Under the pieces are notes generated by a model. That model was not told the DNA's origin, made no database searches, and saw nothing but the letters and a program-made list of their open reading frames with translations. The translations under genes and the position numbers were made by a program. From Escherichia phage vB_EcoM_R5505: DNA of 64,000 bases. Below are positions 4,293 to 46,454 of the stretch, one piece after another; the first letter of the stretch is position 1; the number at the start of each line of letters is the position of its first letter. The stretch lies in sequence record MK373786.1; one strand, written 5' to 3'.

Positions 4293-4535
4293 TTAATATC
4301 CTCTTTGTTTTGGTTTATTTTACCAAAAATTTATAAAGCAATATAGGAGCCGAAGCTCCTATCCACATAATACGCCATACAGAGGCTCATTAGAACTTTT
4401 AAATTTTATGCGCTTATATTTTATAGTTCCTTCTGCTTTAGCTTTATCATGAGACTCTTTAAAGAGTCTCATCATTTCCTCTTTAGAGGAACGAATTTTA
4501 TTATAATCTATTTCAGAAGTCTGGGTGTTCATCTT

Positions 4536-4742
4536 TCATAACTGCCACCATTTTTTGACTTGATAAGAATCAACCCACACTTTCATATTAGGGTCTGCTC
4601 TTACAATAGGAGGATTAACTTCTTTAATTGAACTATCATGGTATTCTTTTTCAGAAATTTTCACACAAAGATGACCATTCAAAGATTCAGTAAATCCTGC
4701 ATTAATTTTAAGACGCTTGAATTTTACGTGTGTAAGCATCAA
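4536..4742 (-). CDS. Small hypothetical protein, 68 aa
   Basis: Track ORF in co-oriented early gene array; no recognisable motif. Confidence 0.4.
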   Translation of the reverse strand: MMLTHVKFKRLKINAGFTESLNGHLCVKISEKEYHDSSIKEVNPPIVRADPNMKVWVDSYQVKKWWQL

Positions 4743-5025
4743 TCATATCCTCAATTTGCGATCTAGTAGTCTTCCAAAGAATACTGATGAGTTCATCGTT
4801 ATATGGCTGTTTTAGAATATCCCGACTTTTCTTGATAGCATATTCGTATTGAGCAAAATTATTGTTTTCAGCTGCGATCTGAGCGTGCTTATAAAGACGA
4901 TTCAGTTCGCGTTTGTTTTTAGACAATAACTTATTTGCTTTTCTTTCTGCTTCAAGACGGTTCTTTTCTTCAATAGAAGAAATAAGCTTTTCCACTTCAT
5001 CATTAATTTCGGGTTTATCAGTCAT
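4708..5025 (-). CDS. Hypothetical protein, 105 aa, predicted coiled-coil
   Basis: Track ORF; charged helical sequence; tight spacing with neighbours. Confidence 0.5.
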   Translation of the reverse strand: MTDKPEINDEVEKLISSIEEKNRLEAERKANKLLSKNKRELNRLYKHAQIAAENNNFAQYEYAIKKSRDILKQPYNDELISILWKTTRSQIEDMIDAYTRKIQAS

Positions 5026-5026
5026 A

Positions 5027-5245
5027 TTATTTCTCTAATATAAAATAAAAATCATCATCTGTTAAATGATACCTGTAATTTAATTCTACACCATTAGATT
5101 TAAAAGCGGTATCATACGGATTTTCTGGATCAATATCAATGTCAAGAGCTAAAACTTCCCTGAGATACATTTTAAGTAAATAGGGAATAGCTTCAACTTC
5201 AGGTATTTCTTCCAAGAATCCGGAGAGGTTAATCGTTAGCCTCAT
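5027..5245 (-). CDS. Small hypothetical protein, 72 aa
   Basis: Track ORF directly downstream of gene 55. Confidence 0.45.
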
Positions 5246-5786
5246 ATAAAAAATCCAAACTAGGAGAATCGTCTACAACACTTTTCTTTTCAGCCCCCGG
5301 TGTTCTATAGGTTGATTCTTCGTAATGCGTCATTTTATCGTAGATGTCTTGAATAAAAGTTTCATCTACTAACGCAACCATATCGTCGTCACGACTGTCA
5401 TAGACATTGTGAACGAAGTAACTATATTTCTTTGCAACTTCCTTACGTTCTTTTTTAATACGCTGGACGAATGCATTAAAACAAGCTTGAGTTATATATG
5501 CATGTGGGTTTTTATATTTCGTTTCATCAAAATTATGAAGCCCCTTAATAGAAGCTTCTATACCATCTGCAATCATTTCTTGTTTCCAAGACTGGGTGTA
5601 TCCTGAAAAGTTGAAACGTTTAGATAAGCCTTCTGCAATAAGCATAATGGCTAATCCGATAGTATCATTCTGACGAACTACTTTATTTGGGTCTTTATTA
5701 TTTGCTAATTCTGTTTTCCAATCAATAATAGCTTGTAAAAGCTCTTTATTGTTTACGTAATTATATTTAGGCTTAGTTTCTGACAT
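5229..5786 (-). CDS. 55: Late-transcription sigma factor gp55, 185 aa
   Basis: [28 protein letters not shown]...; start placed at second Met (MSETKP) to give the 185 aa I recall for T4 gp55. Confidence 0.9.
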
Positions 5787-5864
5787 TTTCACCTCTTAGC
5801 TCAATTCATAGATCTATTATATCATAATATTTGAAGATCTATCTTAAAGCATAGAGAATATCAG

Positions 5865-6134
5865 TTATCTAAGTAAACAGTATGCTTGGAATACTTTCTC
5901 CATCATCTTTTTAAATTCATGAATATCTATATAATGACTAGTTAGATCAGCATGATATAAAAAGTCTAAAAACTTTTCATGTGTACTAACATATTCACTT
6001 TCATTTAATTCAGAAACATGGCTTTCCCAATATCCAACACCAGTCTTATTTGGGAAAAATGAAATTTTCATGTATTGGTCAACATAGAAAATGCCATAAT
6101 TTTCAATAGTAATAGAAATATTAATAAATTTCAT
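5865..6134 (-). CDS. Small hypothetical protein, 89 aa
   Basis: Track ORF in early array. Confidence 0.45.
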   Translation of the reverse strand: MKFINISITIENYGIFYVDQYMKISFFPNKTGVGYWESHVSELNESEYVSTHEKFLDFLYHADLTSHYIDIHEFKKMMEKVFQAYCLLR

Positions 6135-6346
6135 ACATTCATCAACTTAGCCGCTTCAAGAGCTGCATCTAGTGAATCAAATTGGTCAACGTATTCAATC
6201 AATTCGCCATAATTGGCATATAACCACCATTGGCTAAATTCATACTCAAGGATGAATCCGTTTCCTTCAATTTGAGTTAAACCAATGCCATTTGTATTTA
6301 CTTCATATCCAGCAAGACGCAAATCGTTAATAAGAGCTTCGTTCAT
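6131..6346 (-). CDS. Small hypothetical protein, 71 aa
   Basis: Track ORF; ATGA overlap with downstream ORF. Confidence 0.45.
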   Translation of the reverse strand: MNEALINDLRLAGYEVNTNGIGLTQIEGNGFILEYEFSQWWLYANYGELIEYVDQFDSLDAALEAAKLMNV

Positions 6347-6348
6347 AA

Positions 6349-6675
6349 TTATACCTTAGTAATTTTCAGGTCTGCAAATTTTTTCTTGCGTTGATTTTTC
6401 ATGCGACGAATAGTTTTATCGGAAATTTCATGCTTTTGATAAGCTTTAGATTCTACACCAAAAGCTTTAACATCAAATTCTGACAAGATATATTGAACCA
6501 ACAATTCACGGACAGTATTGCGTCCAATCTTCTGATCATTCTGTTTCATCGTTTGATGAAGCTCTTTTTCCCATTTATCCAAACTTTGAGGAGTTACAAT
6601 ATCGCCTTTTTCTAGCAAAGAAACTACTTTATCATATGCGTAAGAATTGATGGCGTTTTTAATTTGAATAGTCAT
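6349..6675 (-). CDS. Hypothetical basic protein, 108 aa
   Basis: Track ORF; lysine/arginine-rich C-terminus. Confidence 0.5.
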   Translation of the reverse strand: MTIQIKNAINSYAYDKVVSLLEKGDIVTPQSLDKWEKELHQTMKQNDQKIGRNTVRELLVQYILSEFDVKAFGVESKAYQKHEISDKTIRRMKNQRKKKFADLKITKV

Positions 6676-9101: not shown

Positions 9102-10915
9102 TGGTGTTTAACCCTATGCATGATTTCTTTATTTTTACCGAGATTAAATCCGCGTTCGTTCGGATTTCCCAAATAACCACATGTTCTTCTTATTGTGTTC
9201 ATCTTTTTAGGATCAGTTTCTCCACAAATAGAACAAACAAATCCGTTTTCAGTAGGAGTCATTTCATGGGTACTTCCACATGTAAAACATTTATCTACTG
9301 GCATATTAACACCAAAATAATCTAAATGTTGTGCAGCATAATCCCATACGGCCTCAAGGCCTTTCAAGTTATTTTTCATATCAGGAAGTTCAACATAAGA
9401 AATGTGACCACCTGTCGCAATGAAATGATATGGCGCTTCACGAGAAATCTTTTCAAACGGAGTAATATTTTCTTCTACTGAAACGTGGAAACTGTTAGTG
9501 TACCAGCCTTTATCGGTAACATCTTTTACACTTCCATATTTTTCTGTATCAAGTTTACAGAAGCGATAACAAAGGTTTTCAGCAGGAGTAGAATACAAAC
9601 TAAAAGCAAACCCAGTTCTTTCAGTCCACTGTTTAAGACGAGCATTCATTTTAGTTAAAATTTCTTGTCCAATATCACGACCGACAAGAATATTCAATTC
9701 GTGAATACCAATGTATCCTAAGGACACTGAACTTCTACCGTTTTTAAATAACTCAATTATATCATCATCAGGTTTAAGACGAACCCCGAATGCACCTTCT
9801 TGGTAAAGAATAGGAGCAACAGTCGCTTTAACTCCTTTTAAGGAACTAATTCTACACATCAATGCTTCAAAACATAAATCCATTCGTTCATTGAACAATT
9901 CAACAAATTTCTGTTCATTGAATTGTGTTCCAATATAAGAATCTAACGCGATACGAGGAAGATTCAGTGTTACAACACCGAGATTATTACGTCCATCAAG
10001 AATTTCATTACCAGTCGAATCTTTCCATACGCTCAAGAAACTACGGCAACCCATTGGAGAAACAGGAATAGATGAGCCAGTGATAGCTTTATTATTCTTA
10101 GCTGAAATAATATCAGGATACATTCTTTTGCTTGCGCACTCTAGAGCAAGCTGTTTAATATCATAGTTCGGATCGTCTTTATAAAGATTAACACCTTCTT
10201 CAACAAACATAACAAGCTTAGGGAAAATAGGAGTTATCCCATCACGACCAAGACCTTTAATACGATTTTTCAGAATTGCTTTCTGAATCATTCGTTCAGT
10301 CCAGTCAGTTCCTGTACCAAATGTAATTGTTACAAAAGGTGTTTGTCCGTTTGAACTAAAGAGAGTATTTACTTCATATTCATAAGCTTGGAATGCATCG
10401 TATACGTCTTTTTCTGTTTTAGACTGGGCATAATTCAACGCATCAGCGATTTGCCATTTTTCTGCATCCTCAATATGTTTTGCATAGGTGCGTTTAACAT
10501 AAGGAGAAAGTACTTTATCTACATTAGCAAAAGTCGTTCCGCCGTATTGATGGGAAGCAACCTGTGCAGTAATTTGTGCCATAATTGCAGTAGCAACACC
10601 GATTGATTTAGGAGTTTCAATCTGTGCATTACCAAGCTTAAATCCATTCTCAAGCATTCCTTTTAAATCTACTAAACAACAATTAGTAAATGGAAGAGCA
10701 GGGGAATAATCAATATCGTGAAAATGGATAATTCCGCTTTCATGCGCTTTCATAATAAAAGACGGGACCATATTTTTGGCAATGTGTTTAGACACAATAC
10801 CAGCCATAAGGTCCCGTTGAGTTGGAAAAACACGAGAATCTTTATTAGCATTCTCGTTTAAAAGGTCTTTATTAGTTTTATGAATCAATCCTTCAATTTC
10901 TTTTTCAATTGTCAT
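9098..10915 (-). CDS. nrdD: Anaerobic ribonucleoside-triphosphate reductase, 605 aa, uninterrupted
   Basis: 605-aa ORF with C-terminal Cys cluster (CFTCGSTHEM...CSICG); continuous reading frame, no intron. Confidence 0.95.
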   Translation of the reverse strand: MTIEKEIEGLIHKTNKDLLNENANKDSRVFPTQRDLMAGIVSKHIAKNMVPSFIMKAHESGIIHFHDIDYSPALPFTNCCLVDLKGMLENGFKLGNAQIETPKSIGVATAIMAQITAQVASHQYGGTTFANVDKVLSPYVKRTYAKHIEDAEKWQIADALNYAQSKTEKDVYDAFQAYEYEVNTLFSSNGQTPFVTITFGTGTDWTERMIQKAILKNRIKGLGRDGITPIFPKLVMFVEEGVNLYKDDPNYDIKQLALECASKRMYPDIISAKNNKAITGSSIPVSPMGCRSFLSVWKDSTGNEILDGRNNLGVVTLNLPRIALDSYIGTQFNEQKFVELFNERMDLCFEALMCRISSLKGVKATVAPILYQEGAFGVRLKPDDDIIELFKNGRSSVSLGYIGIHELNILVGRDIGQEILTKMNARLKQWTERTGFAFSLYSTPAENLCYRFCKLDTEKYGSVKDVTDKGWYTNSFHVSVEENITPFEKISREAPYHFIATGGHISYVELPDMKNNLKGLEAVWDYAAQHLDYFGVNMPVDKCFTCGSTHEMTPTENGFVCSICGETDPKKMNTIRRTCGYLGNPNERGFNLGKNKEIMHRVKHQ

Positions 10916-18953: not shown

Positions 18954-19922
18954 TTATTTCAGAAGAGTAACCTCAGCGATTTCTTCCCAACCGTTTTTGT
19001 CGGTCATAATAAAGTCAGCAAGATAAAGAGCAGTACGCAGTGAAACATTGCGTAAACGATTAACATTGACTTTCATCCATGATAATGCTTTATAAGTTTC
19101 TTCATCAGAAAGACCACGCTTTTGCATCATGTCAGTTGAAAGAATAACATCTTCAACCCTGACCATAATTTCTTCATTAGTGTGAACACCCAAATCCAAA
19201 TAAACTGAGCGGGACACTAATGCTTGTAAATGTGGAGCAAGTTTAGTACCACGGTCTAATTCGCGGTCAATGTCAACGTTTGTGATAAAAACAATCGTTC
19301 CTTTAAATTCAAACTCACGCTCAATGCCTTTTTCTTCTAAGTAAGAAGATGCAGTGCTCCAGCAGACTTTACGGGTCTCTCCAGTGTCCAGAGCAGCTTT
19401 CAGAAGATTAAGAATGTCCATATCAGAGAAAACATCCACATCATCAATCAAAAGGACAGAATTCTCTTCACGATTATTCCAAAGTTGTTCATAAAGACCG
19501 ATACCGGAGATTTTACCGTTAATGCTTTTATATTCAATGTATCCATTATCATTTGCTTTATTTAAAGCTTTATCTAAAGAATACGTTTTACCAATACCCG
19601 CCGCACCAGAAATAATTAATGAACGAATATTTCCGTTAATAATACCATTCGTCATCATTCCCATAACATTAAATCTTTTATTAATGCGGGTTTTCATATC
19701 TTCATACGATTCTTTAACTTCTTCAACTTTTACACCATCATATGAAATGTCTGATTTGTAAACCCAAACACCACGACGTTTACCGTCAATTTCAACAAAA
19801 ACTTTACCATCTCCTTGTGCATCTACCGGAGCATTATCTGGGAACCATTCACCTAAGAGCTCAAAAGTTCCAGAGATTTCTTTACCGAAGTAGATACCCT
19901 TATTGATAGTTACAGTTTTCAT
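18954..19922 (-). CDS. P-loop NTPase (AAA-like ATPase), 322 aa
   Basis: Walker A GAAGIGKT and Walker B-like VLLIDDVD motifs. Confidence 0.6.
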   Translation of the reverse strand: MKTVTINKGIYFGKEISGTFELLGEWFPDNAPVDAQGDGKVFVEIDGKRRGVWVYKSDISYDGVKVEEVKESYEDMKTRINKRFNVMGMMTNGIINGNIRSLIISGAAGIGKTYSLDKALNKANDNGYIEYKSINGKISGIGLYEQLWNNREENSVLLIDDVDVFSDMDILNLLKAALDTGETRKVCWSTASSYLEEKGIEREFEFKGTIVFITNVDIDRELDRGTKLAPHLQALVSRSVYLDLGVHTNEEIMVRVEDVILSTDMMQKRGLSDEETYKALSWMKVNVNRLRNVSLRTALYLADFIMTDKNGWEEIAEVTLLK

Positions 19923-19979: not shown

Positions 19980-20180
19980 TTATTTTGACATTTCTTCGAT
20001 GTCACGACGATACCCATCACGAACTTCACGAAGAGCTTCAAGGCCACACACAGGCTCGATACCAGTAATGTGAACTTGATTAATCTGATACTCTACATCT
20101 TCTAACTGAGCGAAAACATAACGACGTTCAGCTGCGCACCCAGATTTAGCTTTACCGAAACGTTTATTCAAAGTAGTCAT
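19980..20180 (-). CDS. Small hypothetical protein, 66 aa
   Basis: Track ORF downstream of early promoter 20217-20246. Confidence 0.4.
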   Translation of the reverse strand: MTTLNKRFGKAKSGCAAERRYVFAQLEDVEYQINQVHITGIEPVCGLEALREVRDGYRRDIEEMSK

Positions 20181-20246: not shown

Positions 20247-20270
20247 ACAGTTTTGTGAAAAATTTTTGAA

Positions 20271-20294
20271 ATAAAAAAGGGAGCCCGAAGGCTC
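20271..20294 (-). terminator. Intrinsic terminator
   Basis: Stem-loop GGGAGCC-TTCG-GGCTCCC followed by TTTTTT on the minus strand, directly after the nucleotidyltransferase-like gene. Confidence 0.7.
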
Positions 20295-20298
20295 CCTA

Positions 20299-21312
20299 TC
20301 ATTTATAATAACTTCGGTGGTTTTCAAGATAGACCTTCTCAAGGAAGTCATCCCAGAAACCCATGTCTACTGTTTTAGGCATACCGTTCTTAGAAGCTTC
20401 AGTAGATGCTGCTTCTACTTGATCGACCACATCTTCCAAAAACTCTTGAACTGTTTTAAATGGATGTTTACCCAACTTCACGTCGAGAATAAATGGAGCA
20501 TCTTGAAGTGGATAGACTAAGTCACCAGTTTTGTAAATTTCCAATAGTTGAAGTCCACCACGACAAGCATGACTTAGTGCTTTCCAATCAATGCCTTCAT
20601 TGGCTTCGGCCTTACGAGCACGTTCACCGTATTCAGCATCTAATTTGTTCAGTGACTGCTTAAGCTCAATAAGAGAAAGCGTTGTCTGATATTTACGACC
20701 CAACACAGTGTAGAACGTTTGTGGGCCTGTTTTCTCATGATTATGGAACACCCATTCACAGAATTCGTTTTCTGGAAGACGATGCTTAATATCTTCAACT
20801 TTAGTACGACGCTGCTTAATGGAACCGTCTTCTTGGTAATCAACCCATTGCTCAGGGATTTGATTAACTACTTTCAATACATCACGTAATGCAGCCAAAC
20901 GAGAACCCTTGACGCCGTATTTAGAAGCTTGCTTGCGGACATATCCTAAATATGATTTCATGTTAGTCGTATAAAAACGAGAACGGTTGTCTTGAATAAA
21001 CTTCCACACATCAGGCAAATCGGATTTAACCACTAGTTCAGGTGGAGTGTGAAGCATATCCAACGCTACAGTTTCACCATCTGCTGCTAATTTAAAGAAA
21101 TATTTAAGACTGTATAGTTCATGGTCAATATCATCTTTAGTGTTTTTAGATGATGTATTGTTAGTATTTTTACTCATATGCTCTTTAACATTTCCGATAA
21201 GAATATCGCGAGCAGGAGGAACAAAGATTTCTTTAAAATCTACATCAGATTCTGGGGTAGAAGTTCCATAAAGATGACTACCAAAATAGCTTTTCATTAC
21301 TGTTTTCATCAT
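20299..21312 (-). CDS. Nucleotidyltransferase-fold (Pol-beta-like) protein, 337 aa
   Basis: N-terminal motif FGSHLYGTSTPESDVDF fits the GS-x10-DxD signature of Pol-beta superfamily nucleotidyltransferases; strong hairpin terminator downstream. Confidence 0.6.
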   Translation of the reverse strand: MMKTVMKSYFGSHLYGTSTPESDVDFKEIFVPPARDILIGNVKEHMSKNTNNTSSKNTKDDIDHELYSLKYFFKLAADGETVALDMLHTPPELVVKSDLPDVWKFIQDNRSRFYTTNMKSYLGYVRKQASKYGVKGSRLAALRDVLKVVNQIPEQWVDYQEDGSIKQRRTKVEDIKHRLPENEFCEWVFHNHEKTGPQTFYTVLGRKYQTTLSLIELKQSLNKLDAEYGERARKAEANEGIDWKALSHACRGGLQLLEIYKTGDLVYPLQDAPFILDVKLGKHPFKTVQEFLEDVVDQVEAASTEASKNGMPKTVDMGFWDDFLEKVYLENHRSYYK

Positions 21313-21770
21313 TCAGCCTTATATTCAATAACAGGACATACTTTAGCTTTACGAGCTTTTAAAAATTCAACGATAACCGATTTCTTGGGTTGAATAGGAG
21401 GTAAACCTTTATACGCCCTATCAATATTTTCTACGTGTAAAGCATAATCCTTTTTCCATTTATAATCTTTATATTTTTCACGCAAATGTGCAGGAATAAC
21501 AAATGAACCGATAATAAGTAAAACAACCAAAAGCGCAAGTATAAATGCTGATGGAAGCAAAGTCCATAAACTACCAAAAATAATCCAACGTTGTAGGCTT
21601 TCTGCACAAATAATTGTTAGCCCTACGAGTATAGCACATCCAAAAATAGAAACGAAAAATGTAGGAATGGCAATAGACCAAAAATATGCGCACAGTGTCT
21701 TAGGTCGTTGCCATTCATCGTTAAACATTTTGAATAATTTATAGTGCCAAGAGTTTTCATTAATAATCAT
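21309..21770 (-). CDS. Membrane protein, 153 aa
   Basis: Several hydrophobic segments (IAIPTFFVSIFGCAILVGLTII, LLALLVVLLIIGSFVI). Confidence 0.5.
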   Translation of the reverse strand: MIINENSWHYKLFKMFNDEWQRPKTLCAYFWSIAIPTFFVSIFGCAILVGLTIICAESLQRWIIFGSLWTLLPSAFILALLVVLLIIGSFVIPAHLREKYKDYKWKKDYALHVENIDRAYKGLPPIQPKKSVIVEFLKARKAKVCPVIEYKAE

Positions 21771-21772
21771 AA

Positions 21773-22294
21773 TTATCCTTTCATTGAAGGCGTAACAGTT
21801 GTTAAATACTTAATCATAGCTTCAGCTTCTGATTTTGATAGTGAAATTTCTTCACCGTTTTGGCGAATAGAAACAAAATCTGGATGACGATCACCACCAG
21901 CTTTTAAAACACACATATAAGTATCAGCTTCGCCTTCAATATTTGAAATGATTGAAGCAGTTCCACATGAATGCGGTTTTTGATAAATCAATACAGCTTT
22001 TCTTCCACCATTTGACTGTTCATAGGCTTTTAATACATCAAGCAAATCAGTTCTTTTATCAATAGCTAAGATGTTATTTTCATCTTCAATATTAAATCCT
22101 TCGGATACTTCATAAAGAGTTACCCATAAATCACCGATGTCAATAACAGCATTTACTTTTCCACGGCTTTCAAGAGTATGACAAATTTTCTTGATTTCGT
22201 CATAACTCATTTTAATAATATCATCTCCTTGACTAAGGAAGATGTCATTTTTAAATTCAACACGAATTAAACCACTTTCACTTGAAATAAACAT
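21773..22294 (-). CDS. Hypothetical protein, 173 aa (paralog pair with 22301..22855)
   Basis: C-terminus VSIRQNGEEISLSKSEAEAMIKYLTTVTPSM resembles the C-terminus of the adjacent ORF. Confidence 0.5.
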   Translation of the reverse strand: MFISSESGLIRVEFKNDIFLSQGDDIIKMSYDEIKKICHTLESRGKVNAVIDIGDLWVTLYEVSEGFNIEDENNILAIDKRTDLLDVLKAYEQSNGGRKAVLIYQKPHSCGTASIISNIEGEADTYMCVLKAGGDRHPDFVSIRQNGEEISLSKSEAEAMIKYLTTVTPSMKG

Positions 22295-22300
22295 ATTTCC

Positions 22301-22855
22301 TCACTTTGAAATCATAGTTGGAATGACAGAATCAAGATAAGTCTTTAGCGCAATAGCTTCGTCTTTGTTTAATGTAATGATATGTGATCGAAAATCGTCA
22401 ATTTGACGAATAGATACTACATCTCCCTCTTCATAGCATTTTGACACATTTAAAATAGTTTCATCATTCTGATTGCAAGCGTTAGTAATAATAGCATTGC
22501 AATTTTTAAACCATTTTAAACTGTGTTTTCTTTCATTAGAATAATAAAAATATTTAATCTTATCTATAAAACTATCCCAATGGATAACTGATAAGCATAT
22601 TGACTCGCTTTCAATATTAAATCCTGGGCATGAAGAATAAAAATGAATTTTATGCTCATCATTAATGCTTACAATTTTATCAGTATAAGGATTTTCAATT
22701 TGGGTTAAATGAATGATTTCACTAGGCGTAAAATATAGCATATCGTCTTCTTGTGTCAAACGATACATATTATTTACTTTTTCTATAGCCAATTCACCAA
22801 AAAGTGAACTAACTTCTAATACTAATCGTTTCATATTAATCCTTTTTATTGGCAC
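22301..22855 (-). CDS. Hypothetical protein, 184 aa (paralog pair with 21773..22294)
   Basis: C-terminus VSIRQIDDFRSHIITLNKDEAIALKTYLDSVIPTM resembles the C-terminus of the adjacent ORF. Confidence 0.5.
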   Translation of the reverse strand: MPIKRINMKRLVLEVSSLFGELAIEKVNNMYRLTQEDDMLYFTPSEIIHLTQIENPYTDKIVSINDEHKIHFYSSCPGFNIESESICLSVIHWDSFIDKIKYFYYSNERKHSLKWFKNCNAIITNACNQNDETILNVSKCYEEGDVVSIRQIDDFRSHIITLNKDEAIALKTYLDSVIPTMISK

Positions 22856-37473: not shown

Positions 37474-37549
37474 TGGTCGAGGCAGTAGGGATCGAACCTA
37501 CGACCTAGGACTTAGAAGGTCCTTGCTCTTCCTTCTGAGCTATGCCCCG
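37474..37549 (-). tRNA. tRNA-Arg (anticodon TCT), CCA encoded
   Basis: Hand-folded cloverleaf: acceptor CGGGGCA/TGCCTCG, T-arm GTAGG-TTCGATC-CCTAC, anticodon loop CTTCTAA. Confidence 0.85.
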
Positions 37550-37553
37550 TAAT

Positions 37554-37629
37554 TGGGGTGACCGATGGGAGTCGAACCCATGACTACGAGAATCACAATC
37601 TCGAGTTCTACCAACTGAACTACGGCCAC
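37554..37629 (-). tRNA. tRNA-His (anticodon GTG), CCA encoded
   Basis: Hand-folded: acceptor GTGGCCG/CGGTCAC, D-arm GTTC-AGTTGGTA-GAAC, anticodon loop TTGTGAT, T-arm ATGGG-TTCGACT-CCCAT, discriminator C. Confidence 0.75.
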
Positions 37630-37745
37630 ATTAATACCTACTCCAACAATCAAGATGTCTTCACACGAAATTAAGAGAAGAGTGATCAGTTCAACCCCTA
37701 TAATCGCGTCAAGTAGATATTAATGTGACAGTTGTCACAAATTTG

Positions 37746-37817
37746 GCGGACGTGATAGGATTCGAACCTATAACCAATCGCTTAACAGGCGATCGCTCTG
37801 CCATTGAGCTACACATC
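37746..37817 (-). tRNA. tRNA-Asn (anticodon GTT), CCA not encoded
   Basis: Hand-folded: acceptor GGATGTG/CACGTCC, anticodon stem-loop ATCGC-CTGTTAA-GCGAT, T-arm ATAGG-TTCGAAT-CCTAT. Confidence 0.75.
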
Positions 37818-37821
37818 CAAA

Positions 37822-37908
37822 TTGGTGGGGAGTGGTGGAGTCGAACCACCCGAGTCGCAATGACAATGAATTTACAGTCCACACCGCTACCTCTACGGGA
37901 TAACTCCC
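37822..37908 (-). tRNA. tRNA-Tyr (anticodon GTA), long variable arm, CCA encoded
   Basis: Hand-folded: acceptor GGGGAGT/ACTCCCC, anticodon loop CTGTAAA, long variable arm, T-arm GGTGG-TTCGACT-CCACC. Confidence 0.7.
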
Positions 37909-37917
37909 CAAATTAAT

Positions 37918-37992
37918 TTGGTGGCCCTGGGTGGAATTGAACCACCATCTGGCGATTATGAGTCGCTTGCTTGAACCTTCCAGCTACAGGGC
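37918..37992 (-). tRNA. tRNA with anticodon CAT (Ile2/Met type), CCA encoded
   Basis: Hand-folded: acceptor GGCCCTG/CAGGGCC, anticodon loop CTCATAA, T-arm GGTGG-TTCAATT-CCACC; in T4 the CAU tRNA reads AUA as Ile. Confidence 0.8.
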
Positions 37993-37993
37993 C

Positions 37994-38070
37994 TTGGTGC
38001 TGATTGACGGAATCGAACCGCCGACCTTCTCATTACAAGTGAGTTGCTCTACCTACTGAGCTAAATCAGC
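37994..38070 (-). tRNA. tRNA-Thr (anticodon TGT), CCA encoded
   Basis: Hand-folded: acceptor GCTGATT/AATCAGC, D-arm GCTC-AGTAGGTA-GAGC, anticodon loop CTTGTAA. Confidence 0.85.
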
Positions 38071-38075
38071 AAAAC

Positions 38076-38165
38076 TGGCGGAGGCGATAGGATTTGAACC
38101 TATGAGTCGCCGGAGCGACTGCCGGTTTTCAAGACCGGTGCATTAAACCACTCTGCCACGCCTCC
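38076..38165 (-). tRNA. tRNA-Ser (anticodon TGA), long variable arm, CCA encoded
   Basis: Hand-folded: acceptor GGAGGCG/CGCCTCC, anticodon stem-loop ACCGG-TCTTGAA-AACCGG, long variable arm, T-arm ATAGG-TTCAAAT-CCTAT. Confidence 0.9.
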
Positions 38166-38167
38166 AG

Positions 38168-38241
38168 TCTCCATACAAGGATTTGAACCTTGGACCTCCT
38201 GATCCCAAATCAGGCGCTCTACCAAACTGAGCTACACGGAG
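38168..38241 (-). tRNA. tRNA-Pro (anticodon TGG), CCA not encoded
   Basis: Hand-folded: acceptor CTCCGTG/TATGGAG, D-arm GCTC-AGTTTGGTA-GAGC, anticodon loop TTTGGGA. Confidence 0.85.
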
Positions 38242-38251
38242 TAAATTAAAT

Positions 38252-38325
<74 letters not shown>

Positions 38326-38330
38326 AAATT

Positions 38331-38417
38331 TGGTGCGAGAAGTGGGACTCGAACCCACAAGGAAATCATTCCGCAGCATTTTAAGTGCTGTGCCTTTACC
38401 AATTTGACCATTCTCGC
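38331..38417 (-). tRNA. tRNA-Leu (anticodon TAA), long variable arm, CCA encoded
   Basis: Hand-folded: acceptor GCGAGAA/TTCTCGC, anticodon stem-loop CAGCA-CTTAAAA-TGCTG, T-arm GTGGG-TTCGAGT-CCCAC. Confidence 0.85.
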
Positions 38418-38418
38418 G

Positions 38419-38491
38419 CTGGGAATAAAGGACTCGAACCTTTGCATCTAGCAGTCAAAGTGCTATGCCTTACCAACTTGGCTAATTCCCA
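38419..38491 (-). tRNA. tRNA-Gln (anticodon TTG), CCA not encoded
   Basis: Hand-folded: acceptor TGGGAAT/ATTCCCA, D-arm GCC-AAGTTGGTA-AGGC, anticodon stem-loop TAGCA-CTTTGAC-TGCTA. Confidence 0.85.
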
Positions 38492-44743: not shown

Positions 44744-46454
44744 TAACCTTAATTGGTTTGTTGGTGTTGTTGAAGATAGAATGGACCCATTAAAATTAGG
44801 TCGTGTTCGTGTTCGTGTGGTTGGTTTGCATCCACCCCAAAGAGCACAAGGTGATGTAATGGGTATTCCAACTGAAAAATTACCATGGATGTCAGTTATT
44901 CAACCTATAACTTCTGCAGCGATGTCAGGAATTGGAGGTTCTGTTACAGGGCCAGTAGAAGGAACTAGAGTTTATGGTCATTTTTTAGACAAATGGAAAA
45001 CTAACGGAATTGTCCTTGGCACATATGGTGGAATAGTTCGCGAAAAACCGAATAGACTTGAAGGATTTTCTGACCCAACTGGGCAGTATCCTAGACGTTT
45101 AGGAAATGATACGAACGTATTAAACCAAGGCGGAGAAGTAGGATATGATTCGTCTTCTAATATTATCCAAGATAGTAATCTAGACACTGCGATAAATCCC
45201 GATGATAGACCACTATCAGAGATTCCAACCGATGATAATCCAAATATGTCAATGGCTGAAATGCTTCGCCGTGATGAAGGATTAAGATTAAAAGTTTATT
45301 GGGATACCGAAGGATATCCGACAATTGGTATTGGTCATCTTATCATGAAGCAGCCAGTTCGTGATATGGCTCAAATTAATAAAGTTTTATCAAAACAAGT
45401 TGGTCGTGAAATTACAGGAAATCCAGGTTCTATTACAATGGAAGAGGCGACGACTTTATTTGAGCGTGATTTGGCTGATATGCAACGTGACATTAAATCG
45501 CATTCTAAAGTAGGACCAGTCTGGCAAGCTGTTAACCGTTCTCGTCAAATGGCATTAGAAAATATGGCATTTCAGATGGGTGTTGGTGGTGTAGCTAAAT
45601 TTAACACAATGTTAACTGCTATGTTAGCCGGAGATTGGGAAAAAGCATATAAAGCTGGTCGTGATTCATTGTGGTATCAACAAACAAAAGGCCGTGCATC
45701 CCGTGTTACCATGATTATTCTTACGGGAAATTTGGAATCATATGGTGTTGAAGTGAAAACCCCAGCTAGGTCTCTATCAGCAATGGCTGCTACTGTAGCT
45801 AAATCTTCTGACCCTGCTGATCCTCCTATTCCAAATGACTCGAGAATTTTATTCAAAGAACCAGTTTCTTCATATAAAGGTGAGTATCCTTATGTGCATA
45901 CAATGGAAACTGAAAGCGGACATATTCAGGAATTTGATGATACCCCTGGGCAAGAACGATACAGATTAGTTCATCCAACTGGAACTTATGAAGAAGTATC
46001 ACCGTCAGGAAGAAGAACAAGAAAAACTGTTGATAATTTGTATGATATAACCAACGCTGATGGTAATTTTTTGGTAGCCGGTGATAAAAAGACTAACGTC
46101 GGTGGTTCAGAAATTTATTATAACATGGATAATCGTCTTCACCAAATAGATGGAAGCAATACAATATTTGTACGTGGCGATGAAACTAAGACGGTTGAAG
46201 GTAATGGAACTATCCTAGTCAAAGGTAATGTTACTATTGTAGTTGAAGGCAATGCTGACATTACAGTTAAAGGAGATGCTACCACTTTAGTTGAAGGTAA
46301 TCAAACTAATACAGTAAATGGAAATCTTTCTTGGAAAGTTGCTGGGACAGTTGATTGGGACGTTGGCGGTGATTGGACAGAAAAAATGGCATCTATGAGT
46401 TCTATTTCATCTGGTCAATACACAATTGATGGATCGAGGATTGACATTGGCTAA
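44727..46454 (+). CDS. 5: Baseplate hub / cell-puncturing protein with lysozyme domain gp5, 575 aa
   Basis: 575 aa; N-terminal OB domain, central lysozyme domain (MAEMLRRDEGLRLKVYWDTEGYPTIGIGHL) paralogous to gene e, C-terminal VxGxxxxx beta-helix repeats. Confidence 0.97.
   Translation: MEMISNNLNWFVGVVEDRMDPLKLGRVRVRVVGLHPPQRAQGDVMGIPTEKLPWMSVIQPITSAAMSGIGGSVTGPVEGTRVYGHFLDKWKTNGIVLGTYGGIVREKPNRLEGFSDPTGQYPRRLGNDTNVLNQGGEVGYDSSSNIIQDSNLDTAINPDDRPLSEIPTDDNPNMSMAEMLRRDEGLRLKVYWDTEGYPTIGIGHLIMKQPVRDMAQINKVLSKQVGREITGNPGSITMEEATTLFERDLADMQRDIKSHSKVGPVWQAVNRSRQMALENMAFQMGVGGVAKFNTMLTAMLAGDWEKAYKAGRDSLWYQQTKGRASRVTMIILTGNLESYGVEVKTPARSLSAMAATVAKSSDPADPPIPNDSRILFKEPVSSYKGEYPYVHTMETESGHIQEFDDTPGQERYRLVHPTGTYEEVSPSGRRTRKTVDNLYDITNADGNFLVAGDKKTNVGGSEIYYNMDNRLHQIDGSNTIFVRGDETKTVEGNGTILVKGNVTIVVEGNADITVKGDATTLVEGNQTNTVNGNLSWKVAGTVDWDVGGDWTEKMASMSSISSGQYTIDGSRIDIG

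Follow-up and report, generated by a model that had tools for sequence, protein, structure and literature searches.

What does the protein encoded at positions 20299..21312, on the minus strand, of a stretch of Escherichia phage vB_EcoM_R5505 DNA (record MK373786.1) do? The stretch was analysed over its whole length of 64,000 nucleotides and is called the window in what follows. An initial annotation made from the letters alone, which left the strand unnamed, had noted in this open reading frame (ORF) a GS...DxD signature. It had taken the product for a Pol-beta-fold nucleotidyltransferase (NTase) that could serve tRNA repair or maturation, interference with nucleotide signals or protein nucleotidylation. 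The ORF and its signature were confirmed, and the core call of a Pol-beta NTase was borne out by profile hidden Markov models (HMMs), conservation and predicted structure. Of the three functions, tRNA or RNA repair is retained, on the strength of the RlaP family match, the gene cassettes of relatives and published biochemistry (PMC12776372); the other two are not. Sequence comparisons identify the protein as a long-form RlaP-family (PF10127) Pol-beta NTase and as the ortholog of T4 NrdC.11. We propose that it is probably a nucleotide-restoring enzyme of phage tRNA or RNA repair, which would add one or two untemplated nucleoside monophosphates (NMPs) to damaged RNA 3'-OH ends.

Family assignment and active site

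The protein matches the Pfam family RlaP (PF10127, 'RNA repair pathway DNA polymerase beta family'), whose name stands for RNA ligase-associating Pol-beta, with 43.7 bits for a gathering cutoff of 23 (E 3.6e-11). This match spans only residues 7-135, i.e. profile positions 23-142 of 249; PHROG 388, 'nucleotidyltransferase', is matched over the full length (E 1e-137). The RlaP profile was also matched individually, at E<=1e-3, by all 50 members of a diverse alignment (A1) that extends down to 25% identity.

The ORF codes for 337 residues plus the stop codon, or 336 residues from the second ATG (21309), as in the T4 annotation, and hence two residue numberings are in use: G11-S12, D23 and D25 of the ORF are G10-S11, D22 and D24 of T4. 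The N-terminus reads MMKTVMKSYFGSHLYGTSTPESDVDF in the ORF list and the window sequence. The active-site signature FGSHLYGTSTPESDVDF (G-S ... D-x-D), read from the sequence, lies at 21235..21285 on the minus strand, and G11-S12-x10-D23-x-D25, in ORF numbering, fits the pattern hG[GS]-x9-13-DxD. On the same strand, the codons of the first two metal-binding aspartates, D22 and D24, are at 21244-21246 and 21238-21240, and that of the third catalytic carboxylate, D84 in strand ALDMLH, at 21058..21060. In 266 diverse relatives, G10, S11, D22 and D24 are conserved at 100% and D84 at 98%, and D84 is invariant in A1. These residues show the predicted two-metal active site to be intact. The bare GS...DxD motif is weak evidence alone, because a chance match to the strict GS-x(9-13)-DxD pattern is also present in a second, unrelated stretch free of stop codons (45680-45889 of the window); the significance of the motif comes from the HMM and the structure.

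Domain organization

The AlphaFold model of the protein (predicted local distance difference test score 86.7) matches Pol-beta NTases. Structure prediction, one of the checks that the initial annotation had put forward, does yield a Pol-beta NTase fold. Three parts can be delineated on the minus strand in T4 numbering. The predicted N-terminal Pol-beta NTase domain (residues 1-135; 20905..21309) is followed by a clade-specific insertion (residues ~136-226; 20632..20904) composed of one helix, a beta-rich subdomain and the start of a long helix. The C-terminal helical domain (residues ~227-336; 20302..20631) harbours the motif R230, D241-x-K243-x-x-S246-H247-x-x-R250, P267, K278. The insertion is absent from canonical RlaPs of ~250 residues, and its beta-rich subdomain is without detectable structural relative.

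The family membership of the C-terminal domain was assessed with hhalign, using the A1 profile and a canonical RlaP of 253 residues from a Bacillus thuringiensis plasmid, which itself matches positions 19-249 of the 249 of PF10127. Residues 1-135 and 227-325 aligned with a probability of 98.6% (E 6e-16), including the motif G-x-D-x-K-x-x-(S)-H-x-x-R, and residues ~136-226 were left as an insertion. This alignment identifies the C-terminal helical domain as homologous to that of canonical RlaP. Because both end domains align to canonical RlaP with residues ~136-226 inserted between them, we describe the protein as a long-form RlaP.

Among the fold neighbours of the model are KNTase/ANT, LinB and MNT-HEPN complexes, and its C-terminal bundle is HEPN/KNTase_C-like. 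Taken with weak sequence matches to MntA, this might suggest a nucleotidylation of proteins or small molecules, in the way MntA AMPylates HEPN toxins or kanamycin and lincosamide nucleotidyltransferases modify antibiotics. We nevertheless regard such an activity as highly improbable. The NCBIfam MntA model scored 13.2 bits for a cutoff of 60 and NTP_transf_2 13.6 bits for a cutoff of 21, and a HEPN partner gene is absent. A search of the PDB with the single sequence returned nothing at E<=10, and a profile search only a marginal MNT match (E 0.24). The family-specific match is to RlaP, the gene contexts described below are RNA-repair cassettes, and canonical RlaPs left Escherichia coli proteins unlabelled (PMC12776372), all of which speaks against the protein nucleotidylation envisaged in the initial annotation.

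Orthology with T4 NrdC.11 and distribution

Over the gene region, the DNA is 99.9% identical to that of Escherichia phage AV122 and 97-99% identical to that of many Tequatroviruses, with matches in 698 phage records; on sequence, the phage of the window is assigned to Tequatrovirus. By position and similarity, we identify the NTase gene as the ortholog of T4 nrdC.11 (NC_000866 55435-56445; RefSeq label 'nucleotidyltransferase'), a long-catalogued gene that had gone unrecognised in the initial annotation. T4 NrdC.11 (NP_049709; UniProt 'uncharacterized 38.9 kDa protein in nrdC-mobD region') resembles the protein of the window in length (336/337 residues), and its gene occupies the same place, flanked by the gene of the nrdC.10-like ATPase on one side and by the mobD/mobD.1 region on the other. 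The NrdC.11 orthologues of T2, T6 and RB68 are 96-99% identical to the protein of the window in an alignment that does not include the T4 protein itself. The two loci differ in that T4 has the mobD homing endonuclease gene upstream, where the phage of the window encodes a 153-residue membrane protein, and in that the latter has an ORF of 66 residues between the terminator and the nrdC.10 homolog, while none is annotated in T4.

Homologs of the NTase are present in 1,517 of 50,697 phage records, with at least 80% coverage in 1,443. An exhaustive search of 50%-identity representatives found 3,488 relatives at E<=1e-3 and 831 at E<=1e-30; nearly all of those among the matches listed are 300-350 residues long and match over their full length. 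In GenBank, NrdC.11 orthologs are widely mislabelled 'thioredoxin' or 'thioredoxin, phage-associated', and once 'putative HNH homing endonuclease'. The 'thioredoxin' label has evidently spread from the nrdC.N gene names.

RNA-repair cassettes around distant relatives

Ten of 20 more divergent viral loci (39-50% identity) encode Rnl1, Pnkp, a CCA enzyme, or a phosphoesterase and a kinase within 10 kb of the NTase, and the distant relatives found near repair genes are still full-length and insertion-bearing. An RtcB or Rnl-type ligase is encoded adjacent to the NTase at loci L007, L008, L009, L015, L016, L018, L087 and L097-L099, and Rnl1 abuts it at the last three. In compact phage RNA-repair cassettes (L015 4629-8913, L016 2471-6990 and L087 970-6266), the NrdC.11-type NTase is encoded together with a CCA-type enzyme, a P-loop kinase, an Rnl1/Rnl2-type ligase and either a phosphoesterase or Pnkp. 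One complete cassette has the order CCA enzyme with HD, NTase, Metallophos, Rnl1-type ligase and P-loop kinase, and another the order RNA ligase, T4-type Pnkp, CCA enzyme and NTase.

Other relatives are linked to HD_4, a RelA/SpoT-type HD phosphohydrolase domain. Six fusions of HD_4 and NTase were found in the protein search (P0414, P0415, P0435, P0444, P0468 and P0490), and NTase-HD_4 fusions are also encoded at L009 6657-8183 and L011 8001-9530. At L007, L008 and L010, which are rhizobial loci in prophages or chromosomes, a stand-alone HD_4 gene abuts that of the NTase. The order is RtcB, two unknown genes, HD_4 and NTase on a Bradyrhizobium chromosome; RtcB, NTase and HD_4 in a Shinella prophage, beside TerL and portal genes; and NTase followed by HD_4 in Mesorhizobium. 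On a phage-like contig, an intein-containing Rnl-type ligase precedes an NTase-HD_4 fusion, and a Deferribacter megaplasmid has RtcB 2.6 kb upstream of the NTase. The NTase-HD_4 arrangement echoes the NTase and HD architecture of bacterial CCA-adding enzymes. Altogether, these gene orders show the clade to belong to predicted RNA-repair operons in other phages and prophages.

In Rheinheimera and Vibrio phages, as in three metagenomic phages, the gene of a class-II CCA-type enzyme immediately precedes that of the NTase or is close to it, and enzymes of this PolyA_pol/CCA type, often with HD, are so placed in at least nine independent loci (L003, L012-L016, L080, L088, L089). The NTase might then act with the CCA enzyme at the acceptor end, by re-adding nucleotides 5' of CCA, such as the discriminator base, or by priming CCA addition on trimmed or CCA-less tRNAs. 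The partner would be phage-encoded in some phages and the host Cca in T4-like ones. The window has 11 tRNA genes at 37474-38491 on the minus strand (Arg, His, Asn, Tyr, Met, Thr, Ser, Pro, Gly, Leu, Gln), of which two lack an encoded CCA; the premise of the initial annotation that phage tRNAs lack CCA is thus correct for tRNA-Pro and tRNA-Gln, but the other nine have CCA encoded. We consider this acceptor-end role unlikely. The same cassettes hold ligase and Pnkp genes, which are needed for internal breaks and not for repair of 3' termini, and in the rhizobial prophages the NTase is accompanied by RtcB but by no CCA enzyme. The maturation of T4 tRNAs, for its part, depends on the host CCA enzyme. 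Moreover, canonical RlaP favours the 5' half of an anticodon-cleaved tRNA (PMC12776372).

The NTase is not itself a CCA-adding enzyme, one of the identities contemplated in the initial annotation. There is no match to PF01743 at E<=1, and in other phages the gene adjoins those of separate, genuine CCA enzymes. The two are not redundant, because they occur in the same operons.

The cassettes also bear on the idea of an offensive enzyme that, like MenT or AbiEii toxins, would place nucleotides on the 3' ends of host tRNA or rRNA, block their aminoacylation or function and so aid host shut-off. Canonical RlaPs do label full-length tRNA- and rRNA-sized E. coli RNA with little specificity for the nucleoside triphosphate (NTP) (PMC12776372), and nrdC.11 is among the pre-late accessory genes. 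Yet the recurrent operons and fusions with ligases, Pnkp, HD and CCA enzymes point to repair, no antitoxin-like partner is evident, and toxin NTase families were unmatched in Pfam, NCBIfam and PADLOC. Such an offensive role therefore appears improbable to us.

Several of the loci contain additional elements. At L009, the RNA ligase (4510-6555; PF09414/PHA02142) upstream of the NTase-HD fusion has an apparent intein with a LAGLIDADG endonuclease. An IS605/TnpB (Cas12f-like) element and a resolvase gene lie between the CCA enzyme and NTase genes at L014 (4157-5849), on a 146-kb phage contig, with a second TnpB copy 4 kb downstream. At L011, two short ORFs with release-factor domains (PCRF / RF-1; 9843-10508) are found beside the NTase-HD_4 fusion, on a 96-kb phage-like contig. 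A scan of genome contigs for relatives yielded three loci, among them L005 (NZ_JBHSCL010000010.1, 'Flagellimonas marina'). This 178-kb contig is evidently a T4-like phage genome, with tk, NadR-like NMNAT/Nudix, HNH and cytosine methylase genes, and a gene for a 'Phage ProQ C-terminal-like' protein lies immediately upstream of the NrdC.11 homolog. On B. thuringiensis plasmid pAM65-52-3-235K (L017 1-5714), a canonical short RlaP is encoded downstream of nrdI-nrdE-nrdF and a thioredoxin gene, a placement that loosely parallels the T4 nrdC (thioredoxin) region, possibly by coincidence.

Proposed role in tRNA repair

The name RlaP reflects the linkage of the family to RNA ligases, and its predicted task was to replace nucleotides that RNA ends had lost, ahead of ligation, as summarized for jumbo phages (PMC7824862). 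Two Pseudomonas RlaPs whose genes are flanked by rtcB and rtcA, one from P. fluorescens and one from P. aeruginosa, were characterised in a December 2025 preprint (PMC12776372). Both extend RNA 3'-OH ends by one or two NMPs, taken from any NTP and also from deoxyadenosine triphosphate, prefer Mn2+ or Co2+ and are inactive on DNA and protein. The 5' half of an anticodon-cleaved tRNA mimic was favoured over the acceptor-end 3' half, and aminoacylation was partially rescued for a tRNA short of one anticodon-loop nucleotide. Their structure comprises an N-terminal NTase domain and a C-terminal helical domain. T4 NrdC.11 was put in a separate sequence cluster, cluster 5, and its function was called unknown (PMC12776372).

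From this biochemistry of bacterial RlaPs and from the gene contexts, we infer NMP addition to RNA 3'-OH ends for the protein of the window. It would act mainly on the 5' half of tRNAs that a host anticodon nuclease or ribotoxin has cleaved, removing a nucleotide as well. Pnkp would remove the 2',3'-cyclic phosphate or 3'-phosphate, NrdC.11 would add one or two untemplated NMPs to the freed 3'-OH, and the 5'-phosphate (5'-P)/3'-OH ligases Rnl1 or Rnl2 would seal the break. A 3'-OH product should suit phage 5'-P ligases better than RtcB, as is likewise stated in the preprint (PMC12776372). In T4-like phages, the partner genes pseT and rnlA are scattered over the genome and do not adjoin nrdC.11.

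The partner genes are indeed encoded elsewhere in the genome: that of AV122, the nearest complete one, has Pnkp. The counts of phage records with NrdC.11, Pnkp and Rnl1 are almost equal within each genus label, with, in that order, 286, 286 and 287 for Klebsiella, 83, 83 and 83 for Shigella, 56, 56 and 56 for Enterobacter, 69, 70 and 69 for Acinetobacter, 75, 77 and 77 for Aeromonas, and 608, 635 and 636 for Escherichia.

Several points weigh against the proposed role. The co-occurrence counts are of phage records per genus and not per record. The 64-kb window encodes no homologs of Pnkp, Rnl, RtcB, CCA enzyme or HD_4, and none of 58 close T4-like viral loci (>=50% identity) has a ligase, kinase or CCA gene within 10 kb; for the phage of the window, the link to RNA repair is one of homology and genome-level co-occurrence only. 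The characterised RlaPs belong to another cluster (1a versus 5) and are devoid of the ~90-residue insertion, and the activity of the long-form clade is a predicted one. Untemplated addition gives the correct nucleotide in only a fraction of the molecules, as the authors concede (PMC12776372). Finally, the nrdC.11-mobD.3 block can be deleted from T4 with viable phage (PMC9825161), which fits an accessory counter-defence role but is no positive evidence for it.

RNA repair as a viral counter-defence was first exemplified by the T4 Pnkp/Rnl1 pathway. According to a proposal of 2008, RloC-type nucleases beat this pathway through nucleotide excision: RloC removes the wobble nucleotide, a lesion predicted to defeat Pnkp/Rnl1 repair, with the effect in vivo left open (PMC2610378). 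The ~90-residue insertion may conceivably provide substrate or nucleotide specificity, for instance for a protein-templated return of the excised wobble nucleotide of tRNA-Lys. NrdC.11 would then be the missing third enzyme of the Pnkp/Rnl1 pathway and the answer to RloC. We consider this extension doubtful.

Transcription unit and neighbouring genes

At 21309..21312 on the minus strand, according to the sequence and the ORF coordinates, the first ATG of the NTase ORF and the stop codon of the upstream membrane-protein ORF share an ATGA overlap, which indicates co-transcription; translational coupling is possible. An intrinsic terminator (20268..20297, minus strand) starts 2 nt past the stop codon of the NTase ORF. 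It has an 8-bp stem with six G-C pairs, a UUCG loop and a U-run; in the terminator scan, the hairpin AGGGAGCC-UUCG-GGCUCCCU at 20297-20278 is followed by UUUUUAUUU. The RNA fold has a minimum free energy of -17.7 kcal/mol (z = -4.0), with none of 200 shuffles equally stable, and the equivalent site of phage KAW1E185 carries a terminator annotation. The strong terminator reported in the initial annotation thus stands. Because its first ATG overlaps the upstream stop codon and a terminator follows its own, the NTase gene is the last cistron of its transcription unit. By our proposal, nrdC.11 would be expressed as the last cistron of a pre-late unit ending at this terminator and would be dispensable in laboratory hosts. 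A scan for sigma-70 promoters around the gene found 15 sites, not above the background of 10 +/- 3 expected.

The upstream gene (21309-21770, minus strand) codes for a predicted membrane protein of 153 residues with hydrophobic segments at residues ~25-98. Homologs are found in 854 phage records. Among 78 viral loci, 42 have one upstream of the NTase on the same strand, and in 13 it directly abuts the NTase gene. The membrane protein is absent from all non-Straboviridae NTase contexts examined, has no Pfam family and gave only a marginal PADLOC match (E 0.022). Just upstream of its gene are tandem paralogues (21773-22294 and 22301-22855, minus strand), each with the Pfam domains T4_y05I_N and T4_y05I_C ('y05I-like putative transcription factor'). 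Downstream of the NTase gene, beyond the terminator and the 66-residue ORF (19980-20180), an nrdC.10-like P-loop protein of 322 residues is encoded at 18954-19922 (minus strand); its matches to nSTAND3 and AAA_16 (STAND/AAA NTPase) are all sub-threshold.

The membrane protein next to an NTase gene calls to mind Hailong, in which HalB (PDB 9dbh/9dbj), a 217-residue protein-primed oligo-dA synthase, is paired with the HalA channel, a membrane effector that oligo-dA holds closed. The NTase might likewise make or mimic a nucleotide or oligonucleotide signal, possibly with the membrane protein, or interfere with cGAS-like signalling; we judge the chances of this to be very slight. The similarity to HalB is limited to the generic NTase core (149 residues, 14% identity), and a HalA/HalB-like pairing is unlikely, since T4 has mobD in place of the membrane protein, which does not occur outside Straboviridae. 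A PADLOC search with the NTase and seven neighbouring proteins returned nothing meaningful, and neither a HalB-type NTase with a HalA effector nor a cGAS/DncV-like NTase (CD-NTase), by sequence, fold or CBASS-like context, was found. With no PADLOC match and no CD-NTase among the fold neighbours, the cGAS/DncV-like signalling first considered is not borne out.

Significance and comparison with known systems

Both the assignment to RlaP and the repair hypothesis had been published before, and the T4 gene has its name in RefSeq; the discovery is therefore modest. Our analysis adds the RlaP-like C-terminal domain, the orphan insertion of ~90 residues, and the cassettes and fusions that tie the clade to Rnl1, Pnkp, CCA enzymes and HD_4. 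If NrdC.11 does restore excised nucleotides, T4-like phages, with ~1,500 sequenced genomes that have the gene, already hold a counter-move to RloC-type nucleases, and one deletion mutant together with one purified protein would suffice to address a long-standing question. As for annotation, the gene should be named RlaP-family RNA nucleotidyltransferase, rather than 'thioredoxin' or hypothetical.

Class II CCA-adding enzymes and the head domain of poly(A) polymerase (PF01743) belong to the same Pol-beta superfamily as RlaP. Like RlaP, CCA-adding enzymes extend RNA 3' ends independently of a template and are associated with HD phosphohydrolase domains. They differ from the NTase of the window in domain architecture and are alone in matching PF01743. 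Canonical bacterial RlaP shares with it the Pfam family and the catalytic Asp triad, and is associated with RNA ligases, as are the relatives of the NTase. In contrast, the latter is longer by ~85-90 residues, owing to the inserted subdomain, and its clade corresponds to cluster 5, whereas the characterised canonical RlaPs are in cluster 1a. The partners of the phage clade include 5'-P ligases (Rnl1/Rnl2) and Pnkp as well as RtcB.
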